Assembly (NCBI GenBank): GCA_041589075.1
Contig: JBFHWK010000003.1
Location: 1-53,054, forward strand
Direction of reading: 5' to 3'
Origin: Rhodothermales bacterium
GTDB lineage: Bacteria > Bacteroidota > Rhodothermia > Rhodothermales > JABDKH01
DNA: 53,054 nt
Part shown: one piece after another, positions 23,735 through 38,871 of the stretch
Numbering within the stretch: the first letter of the stretch is position 1
Layout: each line of letters opens with the position of its first letter
Translations under genes and position numbers: made by a program
The notes under the pieces: generated by a model
Seen by the model: only the letters and a program-made list of their open reading frames with translations
What the model was told of the DNA's origin: nothing
Databases searched by the model: none

Positions 23735-24667
23735 TCACCAGCCGCCCGACGCACCCCCTCCTCCAAAGGAACCCCCGCCACCGCTAAAGCCGCCGCCCGA
23801 AAACCCGCCGCCGGAAAACCCGCCCGATCCCCCGCCGATTACGACGGGGCCCCACCGCACCGAGCCCTTCTCCGCCATCGTCTTTCGCATGGCCCGGACC
23901 TTGGGGTGCGCCTGCACCAATATGTAAGCAACCGCATAGATCAACACGAACACAAACCCGCCGACCTCGGAGCCGGTCATTGAGAATCCAGCGACCCAGA
24001 AGAAGGGCATAAGGAAAACGAACATGAACCACCTCATGCATCCCGCCGTGACCAGCCCCATGAAGGCAAAGAACGAGGGTAGAATCACGAAGGGTAAGCC
24101 GAACCAGAAAGGTGGCCTGTCCGGCGGCGACTCCGCGGGCACGTAGGTGCCCTCGATTGCACCGAGAATAGCGGTGACACCGCTTCGTACACCCCCGTCG
24201 AAATCGCCCCGCCGCAAGTACGGCCTCACATCGTTGCGCAGAATTCGGCTTGCCACAACGTCGGGCAGCGCACCCTCGAGGCCATAGCCGACCTCAATGC
24301 GCATCTCCCGGTCGGCTATCGCGAGCATGAATAGCACGCCGTTGTTGTTGCGCGACGTTCCGAGGGCCCACTCCCGCGCAACGGCAAGTGCAAATTCCTC
24401 TACGGCATAGCCCTGTAGGTCAGGAACGGTCAACACAGCGACTTGGTTGGAGGTGGCTCTCTCGTGCGCCTCCAGAAGCGCGCTGAGATCGCGCTCGACC
24501 GCATCGGAAAGAACGTGTGCAATGTCGACGACCCTCCCTTCCAGGGCCGGTATCGTCGGCTGGCCCACAGCCGCAGCGCTGCAGACGAATAGAAGAGCAG
24601 CCACGGCCCACCCTCGCAAGGAAGCGCGTGTAGCCGAAATGGGGCAACGCGGCGTTCTTCTATTCAT
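23735..24667 (-). CDS. TPM-domain (YgcG-like) membrane protein with a Gly-rich tail
   Basis: QVAVLTV, NNGVLF, RIEVGYGLEGALPD, TM helices, tail FSGGGGSFGGGGASGGW. Confidence 0.9.
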   Translation of the reverse strand: MNRRTPRCPISATRASLRGWAVAALLFVCSAAAVGQPTIPALEGRVVDIAHVLSDAVERDLSALLEAHERATSNQVAVLTVPDLQGYAVEEFALAVAREWALGTSRNNNGVLFMLAIADREMRIEVGYGLEGALPDVVASRILRNDVRPYLRRGDFDGGVRSGVTAILGAIEGTYVPAESPPDRPPFWFGLPFVILPSFFAFMGLVTAGCMRWFMFVFLMPFFWVAGFSMTGSEVGGFVFVLIYAVAYILVQAHPKVRAMRKTMAEKGSVRWGPVVIGGGSGGFSGGGFSGGGFSGGGGSFGGGGASGGW

Positions 24668-25322
24668 CGGAGCCGAGCCGCAGTCGGTTTTCAAGCTCGT
24701 CCGAGTCGTCCGCACGAATGTGCACGCCGTGTGTCTCTAATAGACGTCCACATTTCTCTATAGCCTCGACGAGCCCGTCCGTTAGCCGGCCGGCACGGAT
24801 TCCGTTCCGTATCGTTTGGACAACGTCGACCCAGTCCTGCGGATCGACAGCTTTGTTGATACCCTCGTCCCCCAGCACTTCGATGCGGTGCTCCAGGATC
24901 GACACAAACAGAAGAATACCTGTGCGGTCACGCGTCTTGAACACCTCCTCCTCAAGGAACGCCCTCATCGCCCTCAGATGCACAGTTCGGGTTAGAAGCG
25001 CATCACCTGCCGCGAGGCGGCGAACCGAGGGAATCAAAGCCACCAGCACAACGCCGATAGTAGCGCTCGCAACGGTGACGAGTGTCAGTCCCCAGTTAGT
25101 GTGAAGCCATCCAAAACCCCAGCCCTCATAGAACCGAACAAAGACAAGCGCCAAGGCGAGGGCACCGAGGCCTAATACCACGGCTGCTCGCCAGAAGGCA
25201 ACTTCGTAGCTGTCACTTCGATCAACAACGAAGGGCACAATCTCACCGGATGTTCGTTGCTCGGCACTCGCGACGGCCTCCTTTACCTTCTGATGATCTT
25301 GCTCTGAGAAATGGAGTTTCAT
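24660..25322 (-). CDS. TPM-domain membrane protein
   Basis: AVASAEQRTSGEIV, TRDRTGILLFVS..EHRIEVLGDEGI, D..ELENRL. Confidence 0.87.
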   Translation of the reverse strand: MKLHFSEQDHQKVKEAVASAEQRTSGEIVPFVVDRSDSYEVAFWRAAVVLGLGALALALVFVRFYEGWGFGWLHTNWGLTLVTVASATIGVVLVALIPSVRRLAAGDALLTRTVHLRAMRAFLEEEVFKTRDRTGILLFVSILEHRIEVLGDEGINKAVDPQDWVDVVQTIRNGIRAGRLTDGLVEAIEKCGRLLETHGVHIRADDSDELENRLRLGSDE

Positions 25323-25392
25323 GACCGTCCTGGGCTGGTGCGGTGGCTGCAATATACACTCTGAGGGGACCGTACTCTGATAAGCTGAAGAG

Positions 25393-26872: not shown

Positions 26873-27997
26873 TTAGTTGGCGCGTAGCTGTACAACCGCT
26901 TCAAGAGCCGATTCCGCTCGTTGGTAGATCGGATTCCCGGAATCGCCGACAAGGGTCTTCACGCGCTCAAACTGGCTGACAGCGCCGTCGTATCGACCGA
27001 TACGAAGGAGCATGATTCCCTTGTTGAAGTTTGCCTGCACGTGATTTGAATCCACTTCGAGAACGCGATTCGTGTTTGCGATCGCCTGCATCTGATTCTC
27101 CGGATCGTACATGAAGGCGACGGCCATGTCCGTACGAACGTCAAGATTGTCCGGGTTGATCTCGAGCGCTTTGCCGTACGTAGCAATGGCCCTCCTGGCG
27201 TATGCGATTCGCTCCTCGCCGTCCACTCGCTCCATCCAGTCGTAGAAGAGGTTGCCGGCGCGTATCCAGTCGACCTCGGCGTTGGACTCACTAGCCACAA
27301 CCTCTTGAACATCGCCGGCAAGATCGAAGCGACCTTCCGAAACCAGGAAATCGACCAACTTAGATTGGCCGACTTTCCGTGCTGCGCCCGTTGAGGCATC
27401 GATCTCCTCGCGAAGCCTCGCGACCTCGCCCTCTGCCTCGGGCGACAGCGGCGCGGGCGTGAAGTCCAGCTCCGTCGTGCCCGCGACTCCACCCATGCCA
27501 GTGTCGGATCTCTTGCTGGCGACGGTCACGAAAAAGAGGCCAATGACCAACAGAAGTGCCGCACCAATCACCAGAAACACTTGACGGCCGAGCCCGTCGG
27601 GTTGCCCGTTCGCGCCGTTATCCTCCGCCGCGGAGGGTTCGTCGGCAGGCGGTTTTTTTGCATCGGGGATCGGCGCAACGGTGACAAGACGGCGGCCACA
27701 CGAACCGCAAAAACGTGCTCCCTCGGGGAACGGAGATCCGCAGCTCGTGCAGAATCCCGCGACCTCCGATATCGTTGCGGCCACCGAAACCGCGTGTACC
27801 TCCGGCTCCGGCGTATCAGGGCTCTCTTCGACAGGCTCTTCAGCGTTGTCGACAACGTCGCCGCCCGCAGTGACCGCAGGTCCCGCTTGAACCGCTTCGC
27901 CATCGCCCTCGAGCGGCGAACCGCACAGGTCACAGACTTCCCCAGCTCCCTTCTGAAGTGCGCCACACTGCGGGCACACCGTTCGCTCTTTCACCAT
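26873..27997 (-). CDS. Double Zn-ribbon, single-TM, TPR-containing protein
   Basis: CPQC/CDLC and CTSC/CGSC pairs, one TM helix, then TPR-like helices (ALEINPDN, ANFNKG). Confidence 0.8.
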   Translation of the reverse strand: MVKERTVCPQCGALQKGAGEVCDLCGSPLEGDGEAVQAGPAVTAGGDVVDNAEEPVEESPDTPEPEVHAVSVAATISEVAGFCTSCGSPFPEGARFCGSCGRRLVTVAPIPDAKKPPADEPSAAEDNGANGQPDGLGRQVFLVIGAALLLVIGLFFVTVASKRSDTGMGGVAGTTELDFTPAPLSPEAEGEVARLREEIDASTGAARKVGQSKLVDFLVSEGRFDLAGDVQEVVASESNAEVDWIRAGNLFYDWMERVDGEERIAYARRAIATYGKALEINPDNLDVRTDMAVAFMYDPENQMQAIANTNRVLEVDSNHVQANFNKGIMLLRIGRYDGAVSQFERVKTLVGDSGNPIYQRAESALEAVVQLRAN

Positions 27998-30477: not shown

Positions 30478-33300
30478 GTGCTCGCCATCGAAGACCCGAA
30501 CAGCGCACTTTTTACGCTCGATCCCTCCAACACCGAGATCTCGGAGCCGCAAGCGCGGCAGATAAACCTCCTGATCTCCATGCTATCGGAAGTGATCGTC
30601 GAGCAGGCCGGTGCAGAACGTCTTGAGGTTGCCCGACATCTCGCCGAGCTTTGTCGACAGGCAGCCGACGGGCAAGACCAAAAGCGCGAAGAGGCGGCGG
30701 CCGTCGTGAAGCGCCTCGATCTGGACACAATCGTGGCGTTGCTTCGCTCGTATACCGCGATGTTCCATCTCCTGAATCAAACTGAAAAACAGGAGATCGT
30801 CCGCATTAACCGTGAGCGCGCCCGGGCCAGTACCGTGGAGAAGCCGAGGCCGGAGTCGATTGACGAGGCAATCGGCAAGCTGAAGCGAATGGGTCTCGAC
30901 GCAACTGAAGTCGTTGCACTTCTTGACCGCATTGACATTCAACCCACGTTCACGGCACATCCCACCGAGGCACGCAGGCGCAGCATCTTGTTCAAGCAGC
31001 AAGCCATCGCTCGCATTCTCTCACTGCTTCGCGACTGCACTCTCACACCGGCCGAAGAGGAGGACGCGATTGCGGAACTACGGCACCAGATCGCGCTCAT
31101 GTTCGCGACCGACGAGGTTCGCAGTTCGCGCATGCGCGTTGAGACCGAAGTCGAGCACGGACTTTACTTCATGCGAAACGCAGTCTGGCAGACTCTGCCG
31201 CGCATACAGTATGAGGTGCGACGAGCCCTTCGCCGTCACTACGACATCGCGGTCGATTTGAAACCGATCGTCAGGATGCGGTCGTGGATAGGCAGCGATC
31301 GCGACGGCAATCCCTTTGTCACACCGGACGTGACGCGGCACACGGCGGCGTTTCAGAGAGCGACGGTTCTCGATCTTTACCTCAGCGAGCTTCGTGAGCT
31401 CCGGCGCGAACTCAGTATATCCGACCGTCAAGCACCGATACCGGATCTTCTGCGAGACTCCTTGGCTTCGGACGAACAGGAAATCGACCTGCCGAACATT
31501 GTAATTCAACTGTATGTGCGCGAACCGTACCGGCTCAAGATCAGCTATATGATGGCACGCGTCCGGCACCTTGCCGGCGAGGAAATCGTGCCGGGGGCGG
31601 ATCGCCATGGTCCACGTGCACTATATAGCGCCAGGCGTTTTGTTCAAGACCTCGAGCTTCTGCGAGACAGTCTCAACGAGAGTGCGATCGGCGACCTGGT
31701 GAAGGCAAGCCGCCTCGAGAGTCTGCTCGACCGAGCGCGCGCATTCGGCTTCCACCTGGCGGCCCTGGACATCAGACAGCACTCCGGTGTGATCGGTCAA
31801 GCAGTAGCGGAGATGCTCTCGCTCGCGGGTGTAACCGAGCGGTACCCCGACCTTTCTGAACAGGAACGGGTGGAGATTCTCACCCGTGAACTCGTCAACC
31901 CACGCCCTCTCCTATCGACGCGCACTGTGCTTTCGGAAAGTGCTGAGAGCGTTCTCTCGACGTTCAGTGTTATACGGGAAATCGGCGACCTCGATCAAGG
32001 TGCGTTGGGTTCATACGTCGTAAGTATGACCCACGCGGTGAGCAATCTCCTTGAGGTCATGCTGCTTGGAAAGGAGGTCGGGATCTGGCGAAAGGTCGAC
32101 GGCCGCGTCGATACAATACTCGACGTCGTGCCGCTCTTCGAGACCATCGAGGATCTGGCAAAGGCTGAAGACTTCATGGACTCGCTCTTCAGCAACGAGC
32201 TTTACCGGGAGCATCTCACCTCACGCGGCAACTTGCAGGAGATCATGCTCGGTTACTCGGACAGCAACAAGGACGGCGGTTACTGGATGGCCAACTGGGC
32301 CCTCTATGGTGCGCAGGGAAGTCTGGGACGCGTATGCCGGCGCCATAACGTCGACTTCCGGCTGTTTCACGGCAGAGGCGGAACGGTCGGCCGCGGTGGC
32401 GGTCGGGCAAACCAGGCGATTCTTGCGATGCCCGCCGCATCCCAGTCGGGCCGGATACGGTTCACGGAGCAGGGTGAAGTGATCAGCTTTCGCTATTCGC
32501 TTTCAGAAATTGCGCACCGCCACCTCGAGCAGATTGCCAACGCCACGATACTTGCTACGGCATCTGCCGAGAGAGGCCTCTCGTACGAGGGTGACGAGGC
32601 CAAGGTAGATGAGGCTTTGGTGACTGGCATCGCGGACCAATCCATGGAGGCCTACCGTGCTCTGATCAACGATCCAGCGCTGTGGTACTGGTACACGCGC
32701 ACGACCCCGATCGAGCATATCAGTCGGCTTCCGATTGCTTCGAGACCCGTCTCGCGCCGGGCAGCGAACGAGGTCGACTTCGAGAGCCTGCGCGCCATCC
32801 CCTGGGTCTTCTCGTGGACACAGGTGCGGTACATCGTTCCAGGATGGTACGGAATAGGATCTGCGCTACAGGCCGCGGTCGAAGCCGGGTCGCTGCCTGA
32901 CCTCGTCCGGTCCTACCAAGACTGGCCGTTCCTGAATGCAGTGATCGACAGCGCACAGCGGGAGATGGCCCGCGCACGGCTGGCAATTGCAGGTCGGTAC
33001 GCTCGGCTCGCCGAGAAAACAGACGGCGCCCGCGATTTCCACGAGCTCATATCGGAAGACTTCCGAAAAGCGGAAGAGTGTATCCTCGCGATCACCGGGC
33101 AGCAGGAACTGCTGGACAACAGCATGGTGATCAAGCACTCAATACGATTACGGAACCCGCTGACTGACGTGCAGAATCTGCTTCAGATCGAACTTATGAA
33201 GCGTTACAGGTCTGTGTCCGATGACGATAAGGAGCGATACCGCCGTGCTTTGTTCATGAGCATCAACGGCATCGCGGCGGCGATGCAAAGTACCGGCTGA
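30478..33300 (+). CDS. ppc: Phosphoenolpyruvate carboxylase
   Basis: TAHPTE, WIGSDRDGNP, VPLFET, MLGYSDSNKDGG, FHGRGGTVGRGG, LRAIPWVF, C-terminal INGIAAAMQSTG. Confidence 0.97.
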   Translation: MLAIEDPNSALFTLDPSNTEISEPQARQINLLISMLSEVIVEQAGAERLEVARHLAELCRQAADGQDQKREEAAAVVKRLDLDTIVALLRSYTAMFHLLNQTEKQEIVRINRERARASTVEKPRPESIDEAIGKLKRMGLDATEVVALLDRIDIQPTFTAHPTEARRRSILFKQQAIARILSLLRDCTLTPAEEEDAIAELRHQIALMFATDEVRSSRMRVETEVEHGLYFMRNAVWQTLPRIQYEVRRALRRHYDIAVDLKPIVRMRSWIGSDRDGNPFVTPDVTRHTAAFQRATVLDLYLSELRELRRELSISDRQAPIPDLLRDSLASDEQEIDLPNIVIQLYVREPYRLKISYMMARVRHLAGEEIVPGADRHGPRALYSARRFVQDLELLRDSLNESAIGDLVKASRLESLLDRARAFGFHLAALDIRQHSGVIGQAVAEMLSLAGVTERYPDLSEQERVEILTRELVNPRPLLSTRTVLSESAESVLSTFSVIREIGDLDQGALGSYVVSMTHAVSNLLEVMLLGKEVGIWRKVDGRVDTILDVVPLFETIEDLAKAEDFMDSLFSNELYREHLTSRGNLQEIMLGYSDSNKDGGYWMANWALYGAQGSLGRVCRRHNVDFRLFHGRGGTVGRGGGRANQAILAMPAASQSGRIRFTEQGEVISFRYSLSEIAHRHLEQIANATILATASAERGLSYEGDEAKVDEALVTGIADQSMEAYRALINDPALWYWYTRTTPIEHISRLPIASRPVSRRAANEVDFESLRAIPWVFSWTQVRYIVPGWYGIGSALQAAVEAGSLPDLVRSYQDWPFLNAVIDSAQREMARARLAIAGRYARLAEKTDGARDFHELISEDFRKAEECILAITGQQELLDNSMVIKHSIRLRNPLTDVQNLLQIELMKRYRSVSDDDKERYRRALFMSINGIAAAMQSTG

Positions 33301-33304
33301 TCCG

Positions 33305-34033
33305 CTAAGCGGCCTTGCGATAAGACCCTCGATCCACCACGCGCTCACGCAGAGGATCCAGCGGCACGAGGCGGGCGCCGCCTTCGAAGATTTCTTCGCC
33401 GTCCGTCGCCGCAAAGATTACCGGCAGGACCCGGTCAAGCACGTAGTCGATGGCAGGCCCGGCGCCATAGTGGAGAACGAAGGATTTCACCGCGGGTAGC
33501 GACGACAGGAAGTTGTTCACCTCGATTCGCGTCGGGTCGGACGAAGCGAAAACCATTCTATGTGGGCCCTGACCCTCGTCTGGCTCGGCGCCGTGGCCTA
33601 TCGGCAGTATTCGCAACGCGGCCATCGTCCGCCACTGACGGCGGTTGAACGTAGGCCGCACCTCTTTCAGAAAAACAGTTAGGTCGGATACTGACAGATC
33701 GACTTCCACAAAGCCGTACGTACGTGCTGCCAGGGCATAGAAGGCCTCTCGGTCGGCGCCGCTACGATCGGCTACGAAACGCCAGAATCGTCCGCGTTGC
33801 GGCCGCGGCACGCGTTTGAAGGCGGCCCAGGCCTCGTCCACTTGGCGGCCGGTCACCAGGGCGCACGAGAGCGCTGCCCGTACAACCCTGTCGCGGACGG
33901 ATTCGACAGAAAGACCCGTGGCGGCTTTCGGTTCATGCGAGAAGGACCCGCCGTTGCGGGACTGGTTCGGTTCTGGCATGGCAGGCAGGTGTTTGGCGAG
34001 CGGGGCGTTTGCGTCGAGCGTTAAATCGTGCAC
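33305..34033 (-). CDS. Stand-alone paralog of the PilB/GspE N-terminal (MshEN-like) domain
   Basis: Shares RDRVV, FWR, AARTYGF, ILPI and FASSDPTR.EV with residues ~150-300 of the neighbouring ATPase. Start is GTG 34033 or ATG 33979. Confidence 0.75.
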   Translation of the reverse strand: MHDLTLDANAPLAKHLPAMPEPNQSRNGGSFSHEPKAATGLSVESVRDRVVRAALSCALVTGRQVDEAWAAFKRVPRPQRGRFWRFVADRSGADREAFYALAARTYGFVEVDLSVSDLTVFLKEVRPTFNRRQWRTMAALRILPIGHGAEPDEGQGPHRMVFASSDPTRIEVNNFLSSLPAVKSFVLHYGAGPAIDYVLDRVLPVIFAATDGEEIFEGGARLVPLDPLRERVVDRGSYRKAA

Positions 34034-34055
34034 GCAAACGGGGGCTATACTTTCA

Positions 34056-34082
34056 GTATCGGTTCCGATTCGATACGATTAA
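34056..34082 (-). promoter_or_regulatory. Sigma28 (FliA)-type promoter
   Basis: TTAA-tcgtatcgaatcgga(15)-ACCGATAC on the minus strand, just upstream of 34033. Confidence 0.65.
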
Positions 34083-34107
34083 GCACTGTTTTTCGGATCA
34101 GGAAGCC

Positions 34108-36354
34108 CTAATCGGTGATTCCGGTGACCCTGACGAGTTCTTCGACCGACGTATCTCCGATCATGACAACGCGCTTCGCGGAGTCGCGCAGGGACCGCAT
34201 GCCCTCCTCCTGGGCCTGTCGCCGGAGGCTGTCCTCGTCGATGACGTCGCCGGCGGCAAGAACGAGCTTTCTGATCTCATTGGAAAACGGAAGTGTCTCA
34301 GCAATGGCGCGACGACCTTTGTAACCCTGGCCCCCGCATACACGACAATCCGAGTTGTAGGTCGCCTGGAAGAAGCGGGTGTCCTTGATTTCATCTTTGC
34401 CAAAACCGAGGTATCCCAGCAGCTCTTTGTCGTGAGTTTTCGTCTCCTTCTTGCACCCCGGGCATAGCTTGCGCACGAGTCGTTGGGCAACGACGATGTT
34501 GATCGCGTAGGCAATAAGAAAGGGCTCGATGCCCATCTTGTAGAGTCGACTAACCGCGCTCGTCGCGTCGTTTGTATGCAACGTCGAAAACGTCAGGTGC
34601 CCAGTATTGGCCAGCTTGATAGCAAGCTCAGCAGTCTGGCGGTCGCGCATCTCACCCACCATTACTATGTCCGGGTCGTGACGCAGAATGGACCGAAGAG
34701 CACCCTCCATATCCAGACGATGGCTCAGTTTTATCTGGCGCACTCCTCTGATCAGATACTCAACCGGATCCTCAACCGTGAGCACATTAACCTTGGGCGT
34801 GATCACCTGATGCAGTGCCGCTACGAGGGTGGTACTCTTACCCGATCCCGTTGGGCCGGTGAGGATAATCATGCCGTGCGGTTGACGGATCGCCGCGTCA
34901 AATCGGCTCATTGAGTCTTCGAGCATACCCAGCTTGCCGAGATCTGTGAGGACTTTGCGGTCGTCAAGTACACGGATAACGATGCTCTCGGCGTTTACGC
35001 CGGCACGATGCGAGGCAATCGGAAGAATCGAGACGCGAAATCGAATAACGGTCTCAGCAATCCGCCTCTGAATCGCGCCGTCTTGTGCCGTGTCCCGTTC
35101 GAAGCGGTCAACATTCATCGAATTGTCCTTGATAACCGCCAGGAATGCCTCGGGGTGAATGCGCTCTTCACAATGCCACCGTACAAGCTCGCCGTCGACA
35201 CGGAAGTTGATCTCGATCTGTCCTTCAGCGTTAGGAAACACGTGGACGTCGGATGCACCCTTCTTTACGGCTTCGACGAGAGCCGCCTCGAACAGGTTGA
35301 TAAGCGACGAGCGGTTGATCTCAGCCTCAAGTGCTTCCTCGTCTATAAGCTGATTCTTCTCCTCGTAGTTCGTGCCGAGGTCATAGATGAGCGGATCGTC
35401 GTTGAGTCGATCGAGGTACTCGTTTTTTGAGAGAAACCCTTCCGTGATGAGTTCGCCGATGAACGATTCAGAGGTGTACTGCAGCTCAAATCTCTTGAGG
35501 CGAAGCTGCTGGATGAGCTTGTGCACTTCCGGACGGGTAGGATCGTGCGTCGCAAAGATCCATAGTATCTCGCCCGTGCGTCGATCCGCCTTCTGCGCGA
35601 TTGGAATGACGAACAGTTCGATCATGCGATCGAGGTGCGGTCCTTCAAACTGCTCACCAATCGCTTCGATAAAGGCCAGTGCCTCGGCATAGGCGACTTT
35701 CGCTTCCTTGAAGGCGTAGACGTCCGCCGCCTCTCGATAAATTTGCTCGCGGTCAACCCGAGGATCCAGTGTGATCACGCGCCAGAGTGGAACACGGTAC
35801 CCTTCTTTCCGCAGACGTTTCCATTCCTCGAGACTGTCGTTGAGCTGCTCCTCCGTAATGAGCTTGCCGCCAATGAGGCGTTGGACGACGCGGTCACGAA
35901 TCTTCTTCCCGCCGACGATAGCAGGCTCCTCTTCAATGTCGATCGGGTTACCGTGCGCGTCGATCGGACCCGTGTACTCCTGGTCCTCGTCGTCTTCAAA
36001 GTCTGGTTCAGATTCCTCTTCCGGCGCTTGCGACTCGGGCACCGGTTCAAACGTGGCAACCGGAGGATGGTCTTCAGCGACTAGCGACGGTGCGTGATCT
36101 GCCGTGCCGTCATGATGCGGCGTCGTCCCTTCGAAGAAGCCCCGGTCGGAGTCACTCGCTTCGGTGGACTCACTTTGTTCCTCACTGTCCGAGTCTTCTG
36201 CCAACAGGTCGCGGCCCACCTCGGGCATCTCTGCGCCGGATTCTTCAAGTTCCGCGGCTTCCGCGGTCTCAAGATCAGACTCTTCGTCCAGCAGACTGGT
36301 AATCCGACCTATCTGTGCTCGAAAGTCAAAGCGCTTGGAGGATGATGTCTTCAT
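34108..36354 (-). CDS. PilB/GspE-family assembly ATPase with an acidic N-terminal extension
   Basis: ASDVHV, FRVDG, Walker A GPTGSGKST, TVEDPVE, LRHDPDIVMVGEMRD, TGHLTFSTLHTN, Zn site CPGC/CRVC and GYKGR. Confidence 0.93.
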   Translation of the reverse strand: MKTSSSKRFDFRAQIGRITSLLDEESDLETAEAAELEESGAEMPEVGRDLLAEDSDSEEQSESTEASDSDRGFFEGTTPHHDGTADHAPSLVAEDHPPVATFEPVPESQAPEEESEPDFEDDEDQEYTGPIDAHGNPIDIEEEPAIVGGKKIRDRVVQRLIGGKLITEEQLNDSLEEWKRLRKEGYRVPLWRVITLDPRVDREQIYREAADVYAFKEAKVAYAEALAFIEAIGEQFEGPHLDRMIELFVIPIAQKADRRTGEILWIFATHDPTRPEVHKLIQQLRLKRFELQYTSESFIGELITEGFLSKNEYLDRLNDDPLIYDLGTNYEEKNQLIDEEALEAEINRSSLINLFEAALVEAVKKGASDVHVFPNAEGQIEINFRVDGELVRWHCEERIHPEAFLAVIKDNSMNVDRFERDTAQDGAIQRRIAETVIRFRVSILPIASHRAGVNAESIVIRVLDDRKVLTDLGKLGMLEDSMSRFDAAIRQPHGMIILTGPTGSGKSTTLVAALHQVITPKVNVLTVEDPVEYLIRGVRQIKLSHRLDMEGALRSILRHDPDIVMVGEMRDRQTAELAIKLANTGHLTFSTLHTNDATSAVSRLYKMGIEPFLIAYAINIVVAQRLVRKLCPGCKKETKTHDKELLGYLGFGKDEIKDTRFFQATYNSDCRVCGGQGYKGRRAIAETLPFSNEIRKLVLAAGDVIDEDSLRRQAQEEGMRSLRDSAKRVVMIGDTSVEELVRVTGITD

Positions 36355-36489
36355 GGAGGGTGCGCAGCAAAGGTCAGCGGGCGAGCAAGGGCACGAAGGA
36401 GCGGTCGATGGTCGGATTGGCGGATAGGTCTAGTGCCCAGCCACGTCGCCGCCGAGACACGGTGGGGCCGGGCTGTGGACACCACTCGT

Positions 36490-36516
36490 ATATCGGCGGA
36501 ATGCAAGCCGAATTAA
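36490..36516 (-). promoter_or_regulatory. Sigma28 (FliA)-type promoter for the PilB/GspE gene
   Basis: TTAA-ttcggcttgcattcc(15)-GCCGATAT on the minus strand. Confidence 0.7.
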
Positions 36517-36585
36517 GCCATATCGGTGTGTCGGACAACACGACAACCACGCGTTGGAAGGCCCCAATTCCGGCTCGTCTTGCTA

Positions 36586-36612
36586 TTAATTATCGGTCAT
36601 GTGTGCCGATAA
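36586..36612 (+). promoter_or_regulatory. Sigma28 (FliA)-type promoter
   Basis: TTAA-ttatcggtcatgtgt(15)-GCCGATAA, with a perfect -10 box, about 50 nt upstream of ATG 36664. Confidence 0.72.
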
Positions 36613-36663
36613 AACCTGTACGTGTGCCGCAATACGGCGGACCACAGAAACCTTGATCCCGCC

Positions 36664-37104
36664 ATGATGGAGAGCATTGTCGTTGAAGCCATTCGCCAGT
36701 TCCCGGCCCTGGTGCTCGCCGGTTCCGCATTCTATTTCTATCGCCTGTCGAAAAAGGCCGCGAGTGTTTCGAAGCCCACTCCTGCCCTCCCCGAGGGCAT
36801 TTTGGACGAACTGCGCTCCGCTGTCGAGGCAACCGGTAGCCTCGAGCAACAACTTTCGGACCTGAGCCGCCGGATCGAGGATGTCGAAACCGACAAGCAG
36901 CACCTCGAGGAATCGGAGGAGAGTATCCGGTCGCAACTATCGAATCAGAAGATGGCTCTGAAGGAGTTTGGACGTGTATTATCGAAGACGTCCGAGCAGA
37001 CGTACACCGATTTCAACGCTTTCGAAGAGCGCCTTGGACGCATCGAGGAATCGCTGAACGAACGTGGCATGCTGAACGGCGAGAGCCGATCGGCGGCCGC
37101 CTGA
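36664..37104 (+). CDS. Membrane-anchored coiled-coil hypothetical protein
   Basis: N-terminal hydrophobic helix (FPALVLAGSAFYFY) followed by heptad-rich helices. Confidence 0.7.
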   Translation: MMESIVVEAIRQFPALVLAGSAFYFYRLSKKAASVSKPTPALPEGILDELRSAVEATGSLEQQLSDLSRRIEDVETDKQHLEESEESIRSQLSNQKMALKEFGRVLSKTSEQTYTDFNAFEERLGRIEESLNERGMLNGESRSAAA

Positions 37105-37124
37105 AAAAGCCCGTAGAAGTCACG

Positions 37125-37159
37125 AATCGGGTCCGCTACACAGCGGACCCGATTTTTTT
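37125..37159 (+). terminator. Rho-independent terminator
   Basis: 13-bp perfect stem AATCGGGTCCGCT-acac-AGCGGACCCGATT followed by a T run, 20 nt after the stop at 37104. Confidence 0.88.
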
Positions 37160-37291
37160 ACACCTGCCTCCATCGGGCTTCAGAGACGACGCGCGGTTAC
37201 AACCAACGACACACTTATCTTCCAGGCGTGACGGGCGCGCAGAGGCAACTGCCCTGACCGATCCAGCACACACTTCGTACTGTAGGTCTTC

Positions 37292-37990
37292 TTAGGCGGC
37301 CCGGCGCCTCCGCGGCTCCGCATCGCGCAGCCTGATCGGTATCGGAAGATGTCCGAGCACGTACCGGCGGTACCACCACAGCGAGTGTACGTACGCAAAC
37401 CGAGTGCACGACTTGATCACAGCGAACATGTACGATGGCGAGAGAAACTTCACGCGCACTGACTCTCCGGCTACGGCCCTGACGAGTTCGCGAACACGAG
37501 GATTTGCCGGGTCGAATGAGACATACGTCCACCGAACGCCGCCCTCAAGGGCATCGTTGGTTTCGCGGATCGGGAATATGCCGTTCTCCACAAGGAGGTG
37601 CCACTGACGATCCGAGATCTGCGAGCGACTCCACGACGCGAGTATCTGTGAACCCACAATGGAGACGTTCGCTTCGTCAAACGCATACGTCCGGGCCGCG
37701 CATCTAAAAACTGCCGCACTGTCAACTCCTTGCACATCGGCAAGGACACGCCATAGTGGCCTCGGGTCCTGTCTGTCCTGTTGGTAGACCCAAGCACTTT
37801 CGATCTGAATGACCTCCACAAGGCGCCGTTGAAGCAGGGTGCGCACGACGCGGTCCCGCTTTATGGCGCTCTCCAGCGAGACGCTGCGGATGACGCGTAG
37901 GCCATTCTCCTGCTGGCGATGACGCTTGGTGGAACCGAAGAGGCGGACAGCGAGTGACCCTTCACGGCCCTTTCGTCTGGCGAATCCCAT
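37292..37990 (-). CDS. Second stand-alone paralog of the PilB/GspE N-terminal (MshEN-like) domain
   Basis: RDRVV, PLWRV, AARTYAF, IFPI and W.YVSFDP. ATG 37990 chosen because the ORF-track start (38062) lies inside the promoter. Confidence 0.72.
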   Translation of the reverse strand: MGFARRKGREGSLAVRLFGSTKRHRQQENGLRVIRSVSLESAIKRDRVVRTLLQRRLVEVIQIESAWVYQQDRQDPRPLWRVLADVQGVDSAAVFRCAARTYAFDEANVSIVGSQILASWSRSQISDRQWHLLVENGIFPIRETNDALEGGVRWTYVSFDPANPRVRELVRAVAGESVRVKFLSPSYMFAVIKSCTRFAYVHSLWWYRRYVLGHLPIPIRLRDAEPRRRRAA

Positions 37991-38052
37991 TTGCGCGGCG
38001 ACAGTTCTTTCAGCGGTTGCGAATCCGACGCTTGCACGTCGATCTACGGAAC

Positions 38053-38079
38053 GTATCGGCACGGGTTCGACTGCGTTAA
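38053..38079 (-). promoter_or_regulatory. Sigma28 (FliA)-type promoter
   Basis: TTAA-cgcagtcgaacccgt(15)-GCCGATAC on the minus strand, about 60 nt upstream of ATG 37990. Confidence 0.7.
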
Positions 38080-38121
38080 CCGTTGCCGGATGCCCAAGCG
38101 GATCCTATCATGCAATTCGCG

Positions 38122-38871
38122 ATGAGACACACACAGTCACAGGTGCCGATCGAGTATACCCAGACGTTCCGGATGCGCGCGTACGAGGCCGGCGTACATG
38201 GTCGCCTGTCGATGGGCGCACTGTGTAACTATCTACAGGAGGCAGCGGCTGAACACGCTGCTCAGCTCGGTTTCGGGACGGCGTATTTCGCACCCCTGGG
38301 CCAATCCTGGGTCCTCCACCGCCTCCGTATCGAACTGACCGGACTTCCGACGTGGCCTGACGATGTGACCGTGTACACGTGGCCGTCCGGCACCGAGGCC
38401 GTGCGCGCAACACGTGAGTTTTTGGTGTCTGCTCCGAGTTGCGGCGAGTTCGCACGGGTAACGAGCGTCTGGCTACTCCTAGATATGGAGCGTCGGCGGC
38501 CCGTGAGAATGCCCGCGCATCTCCGGCAATTACAACCTCTGAATACGGAGCGAGCCGTCGAACTTCACGAGCCACCCGTACCTCCCGACACGGAGGGCAC
38601 GACGGATGAACGGAAAGTGTACCACAGCGATCTCGACGCGAACGGTCACGTCAACAATGTTCGGATTGCTACATGGATCACGGATAGTGCACGTCCCGAT
38701 CCGACATGGCAGCCCCGGCAGATCGACATCGTCTTTCAAAAAGAAGTTCTTCCCGGTCGCGTCGTCCGGATTCAGACCGCACACTCGACGGGCGAGAAAT
38801 GTTTTCGTCATGCGTTGTCGACTTCGGAAGACGGAATTCTTGCCCTTGCCGAAACTGTCTGGTCCGACTAG
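38122..38871 (+). CDS. Acyl-ACP thioesterase (double hotdog fold)
   Basis: LQEAAAEHA..LG, WVL.RL, TWP, S.W.LLD..RRP, DLDANGHVNN. The start could be 38110. Confidence 0.88.
   Translation: MRHTQSQVPIEYTQTFRMRAYEAGVHGRLSMGALCNYLQEAAAEHAAQLGFGTAYFAPLGQSWVLHRLRIELTGLPTWPDDVTVYTWPSGTEAVRATREFLVSAPSCGEFARVTSVWLLLDMERRRPVRMPAHLRQLQPLNTERAVELHEPPVPPDTEGTTDERKVYHSDLDANGHVNNVRIATWITDSARPDPTWQPRQIDIVFQKEVLPGRVVRIQTAHSTGEKCFRHALSTSEDGILALAETVWSD

Follow-up and report, generated by a model that had tools for sequence, protein, structure and literature searches.

In a stretch of 53,054 nucleotides from a Rhodothermales bacterium (assembly GCA_041589075.1, contig JBFHWK010000003.1; the whole of this stretch is called the window below), we describe a gene module that associates a PilB/GspE-family motor ATPase, one or two free-standing paralogs of the N-terminal domain (N1) of that same ATPase, here the proteins small1 and small2, and a divergently encoded, membrane-anchored coiled-coil protein, and that is conserved among relatives of the same order. 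An earlier reading of the DNA (hereafter the original prediction) had singled out the ATPase and its two stand-alone domain copies, and we examined its claims by homology searches, structure prediction, and comparison with related genomes. Judging from the sequences, we give about an even chance to the view that the free domains are putative motor regulators that act in trans and are possibly controlled by proteolysis. Genomes (G), contigs (C), loci (L), and database proteins (P) are designated by our own handles where they need to be told apart.

The colinear alignment of both small proteins with the ATPase N-domain over about 150 residues, from which the original prediction started, is significant in pairwise BLASTP: small1 matches residues 136-293 of the ATPase (E 5e-17, 29% identity, 164 columns), small2 with residues 153-303 (E 5e-14, 26% identity, 151 columns), and the small proteins align with each other (E 3e-16, 33% identity, 144 columns). 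The five motifs quoted at the time are all present in the translations and all line up in the alignment, namely RDRVV in all three copies, then PLWRV/RFWRF/PLWRV, AADVYAF/AARTYGF/AARTYAF, VIPI/ILPI/IFPI, and FATHDPTRPEV/FASSDPTRIEV/YVSFDPANPRV. Because a profile built from the three copies finds just 6 matches at E<=10 among the 43,224 six-frame open reading frames (ORFs; at least 50 residues) of the 3.75-Mb assembly, this similarity is specific and not compositional; besides the three window copies, the 6 matches comprise the N-terminal regions of three further PilB-like ATPases (contigs C103, C6, and C36; E 2e-32 to 4e-22). No Walker A motif and no T2SSE match was found in small1 or small2, so both indeed lack an ATPase domain, and their orthologs, the purifying selection acting on them, and their own stand-alone clades (all presented below) agree with the description of intact, diverged proteins that are not recent fragments. 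Small1 and small2 are thereby supported as true, old, and intact paralogs of the ATPase N1 domain.

Searches of Pfam and NCBIfam retrieved nothing with small1, with small2, or with the N region of the ATPase, the Pfam MshEN model (PF05157) remaining silent on all three even at E<=1. Genome-wide, this model scores best on the C36 paralog (20.6 bits) and reaches 16 bits on another paralog, for a cut-off of 23.1, and profiles of 3 or 53 family members retrieved no GSPII entry at E<=10 among the sequences of the Protein Data Bank (PDB). Comparison with MshEN/T2SSE_N therefore gave a divided answer, in which the sequence profiles do not match but the predicted fold does. The AlphaFold2 (AF2) model of small1 has a predicted local distance difference test score (pLDDT) of 82.2, with 10-residue blocks over residues 41-150 and 161-200 averaging 86-98, and that of small2 has a pLDDT of 87.6 and a predicted template modelling score of 0.80. 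Compared by VIA-align, the small1 model (residues 48-203) superposes on the MshE N domain 5htl_A (141 residues) with a Z of 12.7 and a root-mean-square deviation (rmsd) of 2.8 Å over 136 aligned residues, and the small2 model on MshE 5htl_B (139 residues) with a Z of 11.3 and an rmsd of 3.6 Å, again over 136 residues. The top 14 entries for small1 are all GSPII domains, the next-but-one dropping to Z 4.2, and the top 16 for small2 are all GSPII/N1 domains, the next standing at Z 3.7; the other matches include PilF GSPII-A, -B, and -C, and the N domains of Xanthomonas PilB (as complexed with PilZ) and of XpsE. Foldseek was likewise used to match the free domain to the GSPII/N1 fold, and both predicted models contain the N-terminal four-helix bundle and the C-terminal alpha/beta subdomain by which this fold is recognized. 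Given the superposition of the two models on the N domain of MshE and the sharp fall in score past the GSPII entries, the free proteins are predicted to be N1 domains of the GSPII/MshEN fold, from a branch that has diverged beyond the reach of the Pfam model.

The original prediction also raised the sensing of cyclic dimeric guanosine monophosphate (c-di-GMP), and this part was not supported. MshEN domains bind c-di-GMP via two 24-residue motifs, RLGxx(L/V/I)(L/V/I)xxG(L/V/I)(L/V/I)xxxxLxxxLxxQ, separated by a 5-residue spacer (PMC5013675; PMC11731258), and the relaxed version of this pattern given by Wang et al. 2016, [RKPN]hGxxhhxx[GAS]hhxxxxhxxxhxx[QNKRYWST] (PMC5013675), fits none of the 161 family domains and none of the four ATPases of the genome. 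In our own reading of the alignment, motif I of the family is R-V-V-x-x-L-(L/I), with a Val at the position of MshE G11, a residue whose mutation to Ile abolishes c-di-GMP binding (PMC5013675), and the spacer between the motifs is about 10 residues long versus 5 in MshEN. Motif II starts with (P/R)-(L/F)-W-R, in which the Trp, at position 3, and the Arg are invariant in the 53-sequence alignments. The canonical motif is thus missing, and the domain is probably not a c-di-GMP receptor of known kind. A sole GGDEF gene was found in the assembly (G000, contig C229:2658-3125), and c-di-GMP signalling in this genome, if present, is likely minimal. Because this branch goes unrecognized by the Pfam MshEN model and has no c-di-GMP site, it should be left out of genome censuses of c-di-GMP receptors. 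Free and tethered copies have in common the residues that vary little or not at all over the family (D48, V50, W84, R85, A102, A103, P144, D166, and P167 in small1 numbering), and the aligned ranges, as opposed to coordinates, would place several of them at ligand-contact positions of MshE.

The tethered copy belongs to a catalytically complete, assembly-type ATPase that matches Pfam T2SSE (PF00437) with 340.5 bits for a cut-off of 24.9 (residues 348-742 on model positions 5-370 of 370), and whose translation contains a Walker A motif, GPTGSGKS, together with CPGC...CRVC cysteine pairs, a candidate zinc motif. The PilB model TIGR02538 aligns residues 158-744 to its positions 4-562 of 564 and yields 384.7 bits, below its equivalog cut-off of 675.65, and the GspE model TIGR02533 yields 385.4 bits, likewise below its own (630.25); the best PDB sequence match is PilB 3jc8 (E 2e-82), the best solved relatives being PilB, GspE, and PilF. 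On these scores, the ATPase is best regarded as a superfamily member that is not assignable as PilB or GspE proper. Its layout comprises an N-terminal extension (about residues 1-145), the divergent GSPII-type N1 (about residues 146-310), present in one copy only and not repeated as in PilF, and the N2 and catalytic parts (residues 348-742). The extension is rich in D/E/S/P, the family orthologs are of similar length (open frames of 762-787 residues), and an acidic N-terminal extension of about 145 residues appears to be kept. If the ATPase was called an orphan, this is accurate in that no pilus cluster surrounds it, but not genome-wide, where three more full-length PilB-like ATPases occur, the four being 53-61% identical. 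The whole-genome family search placed the other T2SSE matches on contigs C6, C36, C103, and C174; the C103 paralog, which begins at the edge of its contig, may be a two-N1-domain ATPase.

From an evolutionary perspective, stand-alone copies and their linkage to the ATPase recur in relatives, as a search with the three-copy profile and an inspection of gene order revealed. Searched against 1.84 billion proteins with a threshold of E<=1e-3, this profile retrieved 209 cluster representatives (clustering at 50% identity); the only source names seen read "hypothetical protein", from Rhodothermales and Rhodothermia metagenome bins. Among the best 150 of these 209, 12 are shorter than 150 residues, 70 have 150-299, 40 have 300-459, 7 have 460-599, and 21 have at least 600; 122 thus lie under 460 residues, and a Walker A motif is found in 16. 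The domain is carried by 35 frames of less than 450 residues in 21 of the 41 genomes of the order (window genome counted), and for 18 of these small frames, spread over 15 genomes, the domain is also present in an ATPase-size frame at most 3 kb away, many of the remaining ones sitting on short contigs. The linkage was seen directly in 13 fetched loci, and the arrangement is common across relatives in the same order, not unique to the window genome.

Within the family, the ATPase orthologs of the fetched loci are 71-83% identical, the small1 orthologs, found beside the ATPase ortholog in 5 genomes, 47-50% identical, and the small2 orthologs, found only in G003 and G008, 42-44% identical. In the window, small1 lies downstream of the ATPase on the same strand after a 74-bp gap; the same succession of ATPase and short free copy occurs in three more genera of the family (G002, G004, and G009), and a free copy lies upstream of the ATPase in members of other families (G016, G022, and G030). 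The ATPases of G030 and G022, from two other families, are of the window paralog type, each with its upstream free copy, and the spacing between ATPase and free copy shrinks to a gap of 0-4 nt or a 1-nt overlap in G004, G009, and G016. Between the congeneric G008 and G003, the ratio of nonsynonymous to synonymous substitution rates (dN/dS) is 0.16 for small1, 0.065 for small2, and 0.054 for the ATPase, at a dS of 0.8-1.3, which indicates that the small proteins are under purifying selection and not in neutral decay; recent pseudogene fragments were rejected on the same values. The tethered N1 is 83% identical between the window genome and G003 (166 columns), when the free copies of the same genome pair are 44% identical, and on these comparisons it is far more conserved than they are.

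To place the copies relative to each other, we used a domain tree of 161 rows (quick IQ-TREE, with Shimodaira-Hasegawa-like approximate likelihood ratio test [SH-aLRT] support). Small1 belongs to a stand-alone clade with 18 rows (SH-aLRT 98) and small2 to a different one with 8 rows (99), a third clade, with 11 rows (97), grouping the free copies that lie upstream in G022 and G030; the tethered N1 domains of the window ATPase type make up an 11-row clade (99). Since they form well-supported clades of their own, the free copies are old, separate lineages. Two copies of the domain also occur within single proteins, in 11 of the 164 family proteins scanned (P0005-P0168) and in 10 frames of the relatives, 6 of them of at least 1000 residues.

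Two further kinds of domain arrangement were observed in the order. ATPases of 1000-1290 residues with two tandem N1 domains are common (e.g., P0022, P0028, and P0030), the two-match frames including G014:C1:659427-660944, G024:C1:2478006-2479385, and others on G013:C17, G018:C313, G034:C106, and G040:C1. A second class of ATPase-less PilB derivatives in relatives, of 320-430 residues, comprises N1 and N2 and ends with ...ESIVIRVL, the very sequence that ends the N2 region in full ATPases; L033:7796-8872, for instance, matches residues 151-463 of the window ATPase at 37% identity, and further members are L032:5153-6373, P0038, P0055, P0059, P0069, P0077, and others. Derivatives of this kind, which could act by capping or poisoning hexamers, were not found in the genome of the window.

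The gene between the ATPase and small2 had been described as a divergent membrane coiled-coil gene, a description that its translation bears out, with one N-terminal hydrophobic segment followed by basic residues and then a coiled coil. Its Pfam matches are weak, of coiled-coil type, and all below cut-offs, and the positive-inside rule suggests an N-out/C-in topology. Orthologs 54-58% identical hold the same divergent position in all four family loci, and a 31% relative is found in divergent position in G004.

The three small proteins of the window have in common an Ala-Ala end: small1 terminates in ...YRKAA, small2 in ...RRRRAA, and the coiled-coil protein in ...RSAAA, an ending also found in its four orthologs. 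Among short free copies adjacent to an ATPase, 14 of 15 end in AA, mostly as [RK][RK]AA, and among the 67 unique short (<300 residues) stand-alone members of the family, 40 end in AA, 36 in [RK]AA, and 31 in [RK][RK]AA. Ala-Ala ends were found in 0 of 29 ATPases and in 2 of 40 proteins of 300-469 residues, and in none of the short copies not seen beside an ATPase (G033, G022:C22, and G036:C397); as for the genome background, 54 of 3,808 frames of at least 200 residues end in AA and only 4 in [RK][RK]AA, small1 and small2 included. In an Escherichia coli screen, a terminal Ala-Ala was critical for the C-terminal degrons of ClpXP, with the consensus [LFYW][LAR]LAA (PMC10862746). The tails of the module resemble such ssrA-like degrons in their terminal Ala-Ala-COOH, which all three proteins expose on an accessible tail, in their flexibility, and in the aromatic residue or Arg found upstream (YRKAA, YRRAA), and the tag of the host's own transfer-messenger RNA, ANDYSYAMAA, likewise ends in Ala-Ala (MAA). 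The tails of small1 and small2 fall in low-confidence regions of the models (pLDDT roughly 50-70) and are presumably flexible, and ClpX is present in the genome (597.6 bits). By analogy, this suggests that the Ala-Ala tail is a candidate degron, the alternative being a common docking peptide.

Taken as regulators acting in trans on the motor, the free N1 paralogs would work as follows. Because they keep the family-invariant residues (D-R-V-V in helix 1, L-W-R in helix 3, A-A-x-x-Y-x-F, P, and D-P), they would present the same surface as the motor's N1 and engage the same partner, for which the membrane platform, the coiled-coil protein, and the N-domain ring of the motor are candidates. They would thereby modulate the docking or the activation of the ATPase and not sense c-di-GMP, be it by inhibition as decoys or by bridging as adaptors, the two roles put forward in the original prediction, and their [RK][RK]AA-COOH tails, which resemble ssrA-type ClpX degrons, would allow regulated proteolysis to set the abundance of the free domains and, with it, their effect on the motor. 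That one motor can be served by several GSPII domains is shown by the fused two-domain ATPases of the order and by PilF with its three GSPII domains. A single complex prediction, run on ATPase residues 146-748 with small1 residues 36-242, returned "no answer" (scores 0.03 and 0.00, mark 0.32).

Several observations nevertheless weigh against this regulatory role. The invariant residues could be structural and not form a binding surface. The linkage is not obligatory, since the three short copies mentioned above (one of them in G033, a complete genome) were not seen beside an ATPase, and small2 is dispensable in genus g2, since it is missing from both loci of this genus that extend past the coiled-coil gene (G007 and G012). 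With regard to the tail, the adjacent short copy of G030 lacks it, as do 27 of the 67 short members, some of which are perhaps truncated database entries; moreover, the terminal Ala-Ala is necessary but not sufficient in E. coli, where Leu is favoured at the antepenultimate position and not the Arg or Lys found in the module (PMC10862746). Finally, the fused two-domain ATPases are of another paralog type, closest to the C103 copy, and their first domains form a separate clade of 9 rows (SH-aLRT 100), so that a Rosetta-stone argument holds at the domain level only. On the same two grounds, an origin of small1 and small2 by simple fission of a fused two-domain ATPase was rejected.

Other readings of the same data have to be considered. 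The free domains might be pure decoys, the main idea of the original prediction, that titrate the N1 docking partner, a PilM/GspL-like platform, and keep the motor off the machine until their removal, for instance by proteolysis, licenses assembly, a scenario that we deem rather unlikely. It would account for the invariant residues common to free and tethered copies, and a degron-like AA tail would suit an inhibitor meant to be cleared at a given signal; besides, GspL, PilM, and PilZ are known to dock on the N1 domains of GspE and PilB (PMC11656802), with 4pht and 7lkm among the fold matches obtained here. However, identity between the free copies and the tethered N1 is only 25-33% and the free copies evolve much faster, which sits poorly with strict mimicry of a single interface, the genome has no PilM_2 match above cut-off, and no feature separates inhibition from activation.

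It also seems unlikely to us that the free GSPII proteins are split subunits, that is, that they join the ATPase hexamer stoichiometrically as an extra N-terminal tier and fulfil in trans the role played in cis by the additional (second and third) GSPII domains of relatives' two-domain ATPases and of Thermus PilF. The existence of tandem-domain ATPases in the same order and the tight gene order reported above (the 74-bp gap in the window, the near-contiguous or overlapping genes of the three relatives) speak for such an arrangement, as does the fact that the GSPII triplet of PilF forms a second ring needed for piliation (PMC8578077). Against it, the fused forms are of the other paralog type and their first domains branch apart, a degradation-type tail would be unexpected on a stoichiometric structural subunit, and small2 is variably present.

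That the free proteins are independent small receptors, binding a ligand other than c-di-GMP in a remodelled cleft (with its invariant Trp-Arg and Asp-Pro) and addressing targets unrelated to the ATPase, is a reading that we find very doubtful. The positions occupied by c-di-GMP contacts in MshE (PMC5013675) do hold different but invariant residues, and some copies are not beside an ATPase, yet the tethered copy has the same invariant residues, and an adjacency due to duplication history alone would be expected to erode, whereas it persists across families whose synonymous sites are saturated. As for functionless, decaying remnants of duplicated ATPase genes, derivation from the ATPase N-terminus and the want of any Pfam or NCBIfam match would be compatible with them, but they are scarcely credible in view of the dN/dS values given above, of ORFs that are intact in at least 6 genomes, of the distinct supported clades and high-confidence folds, and of the 5 bp that separate the ends of small1 and of the phosphoenolpyruvate (PEP) carboxylase gene (30478-33300, plus strand), which leave no room for ATPase remains.

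What machine the motor serves is approached here through the genes found elsewhere in the genome. The window contains no type IV pilus or type II secretion system (T2SS) gene cluster, with no platform, PilM/N/O, secretin, pilins, or prepilin peptidase. The original prediction was thus right to find no pilC, pilT, or secretin in the window, but the lack of a pilin there is uninformative, because no N_methyl match or leader-motif candidate was found anywhere in the assembly; PilM_2 has no match above cut-off genome-wide. In the rest of the assembly, we found two T2SSF (PilC-like) genes (contigs C6 and C29), one secretin (C20), and two PilT-like ATPases. Neither the N_methyl pilin motif nor Peptidase_A24 gave a match in this 94%-complete assembly, and three regular-expression scans of all six-frame ORFs for a type IV prepilin leader gave no convincing candidate. 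Over the order, Peptidase_A24 was found in 10 of the 41 genomes and the N-domain in 36, so that most of these bacteria show no recognizable prepilin peptidase. A bolder proposal, which we consider improbable, would be a lineage-specific circuit in which the free N1 paralogs and the coiled-coil protein, all with Ala-Ala-COOH degrons, gate the place and time of motor docking, the motor possibly powering, in view of this disparity, a machine that is neither a classical type IV pilus nor a T2SS.

In this regard, contig C6 of the assembly (G000, C6:32626-39795, locus L035) carries on one strand a PilC-like gene, a PilB-like gene, three ORFs without Pfam match (178, 195, and 427 residues), and then a PilT-like ATPase gene followed by matchless ORFs of 603 and 320 residues. 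This region is a candidate core machine cluster; its unmatched ORFs possibly encode diverged components of the PilM/N/O type, and their products are candidate N1-domain partners.

Compared with described systems, the module is made of parts of known kinds, namely a T2SSE ATPase, the GSPII fold, and motors served by several GSPII domains. It shares with the MshEN/GSPII domains (T2SSE_N, PF05157) of MshE, PilB, and GspE/XpsE the two-subdomain fold and the N-terminal position on a PilB-type ATPase; unlike them, its domain goes undetected by Pfam, lacks the c-di-GMP motif, and also occurs as single-domain proteins. In lacking this motif, it resembles the N domain of XpsE, which does not bind c-di-GMP (PMC12943098). 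Thermus thermophilus PilF likewise has more than one GSPII domain per PilB-type motor, its copies being only partly ligand-competent (PMC11731258), and its three GSPII domains are needed for piliation (PMC8578077; PMC11731258); however, they are fused and two of them bind c-di-GMP, whereas the extra copies of the module are separate genes, motif-less, and provided with Ala-Ala tails. If a 2021 review presents the GSPII multiplicity of PilF as unique among known traffic ATPases (PMC8578077), the two-domain ATPases of this order show that it is not. PilB cofactors such as PilZ-FimX in Xanthomonas, or the docking of GspL and PilM, also correspond to small cytoplasmic proteins or domains controlling the motor via N1 (PMC11656802; 7lkm, 4pht), but the known ones are unrelated folds that bind N1, when the candidates of the module are N1 paralogs.

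The statement of the original prediction that no system of this form has been described agrees with our full-text literature searches, which found no description of free N1-domain paralogs beside pilB or gspE, although Wang et al. 2016 may list single-domain MshEN proteins in supplementary tables that lay outside the search. Passages of PMC5013675, PMC11656802, PMC12448109, and PMC12943098 mention no free N1 paralogs beside these genes either. A full-text search combining "Rhodothermales" and "PilB" returned 0 papers. Single-domain T2SSE_N proteins of other phyla figure in domain databases. The features for which we found no description are the conservation of free N1 paralogs beside a motor gene, a motif-less branch of GSPII domains that is invisible to Pfam, and the Ala-Ala tail. 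They matter because the N1 domain is the least understood part of the ATPases that assemble pili and secretion systems, its role being presented as poorly understood, and its structure as poorly resolved, in a 2024 review (PMC11656802). Natural free N1 proteins that are small, soluble, conserved, and encoded beside their motor offer an experimental handle on this domain, as the partners of the free domain should point to those of the tethered one, and the conserved Ala-Ala tail suggests a proteolytic control of motor accessory factors.

The features of the module are collected in table 1.

Table 1. Genes, domains, and intergenic region of the module (positions in the window).
Feature	Position	Strand	Description	Evidence
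small1	33305-34033	minus	Free-standing GSPII/MshEN-fold protein (predicted), 242 residues from a GTG start	BLASTP and AF2 model
ATPase	34108-36354	minus	Assembly-type ATPase of the PilB/GspE family, 748 residues	Pfam T2SSE match
ATPase N1 domain	35425-35919	minus	Domain copy tethered to the motor	Alignment with both free copies
ATPase residues 1-145	35920-36354	minus	Acidic low-complexity N-terminus	Translation
Intergenic region	36355-36663	none	Some 300 bp separating the ATPase gene from the divergent coiled-coil gene; presumed common control region	ORF map
Coiled-coil gene	36622-37104 (ORF), ATG at 36664	plus	Membrane-anchored coiled-coil protein, divergent from the ATPase and convergent with small2	
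small2	37292-37990	minus	Second free-standing GSPII/MshEN-fold protein (predicted), 232 residues	BLASTP and AF2 model

The start of small1 could alternatively be an ATG at 33979, giving 224 residues, and most database homologs have 219-223. The ORF of small2 reaches 38062, the ATG at 37990 giving the 232 residues of its 100%-identical database representative (P0020). A scan of positions 33000-38400 for sigma-70-type promoter and terminator consensus found 3 promoter-like sites for 1.7 expected from shuffled sequence and 2 terminator-like sites for 4.7 expected, counts that do not stand out from the shuffled background.

Around the module, family searches of the 20 flanking ORFs (23735-49698) revealed housekeeping families only. 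Upstream of the locus, we noted a double-zinc-ribbon/TPR protein and two adjacent TPM-domain proteins (26873-27997, minus strand; 23735-25352, minus strand), which are apparently unrelated to the module. With regard to expression, no RNA run containing the stretch was listed among the 12 public runs returned, and the 10 that contain the whole or part of the stretch are DNA metagenomes (marine, sediment, and mangrove), five of which are possible sources of the assembly. The PEP carboxylase gene next to small1 adjoins the module of ATPase and free domains in 10 of the 13 relatives' loci examined, from several families (L026-L030, L033, L034, L048, L050, and L051), an adjacency that has no visible functional link and may reflect conserved gene order.

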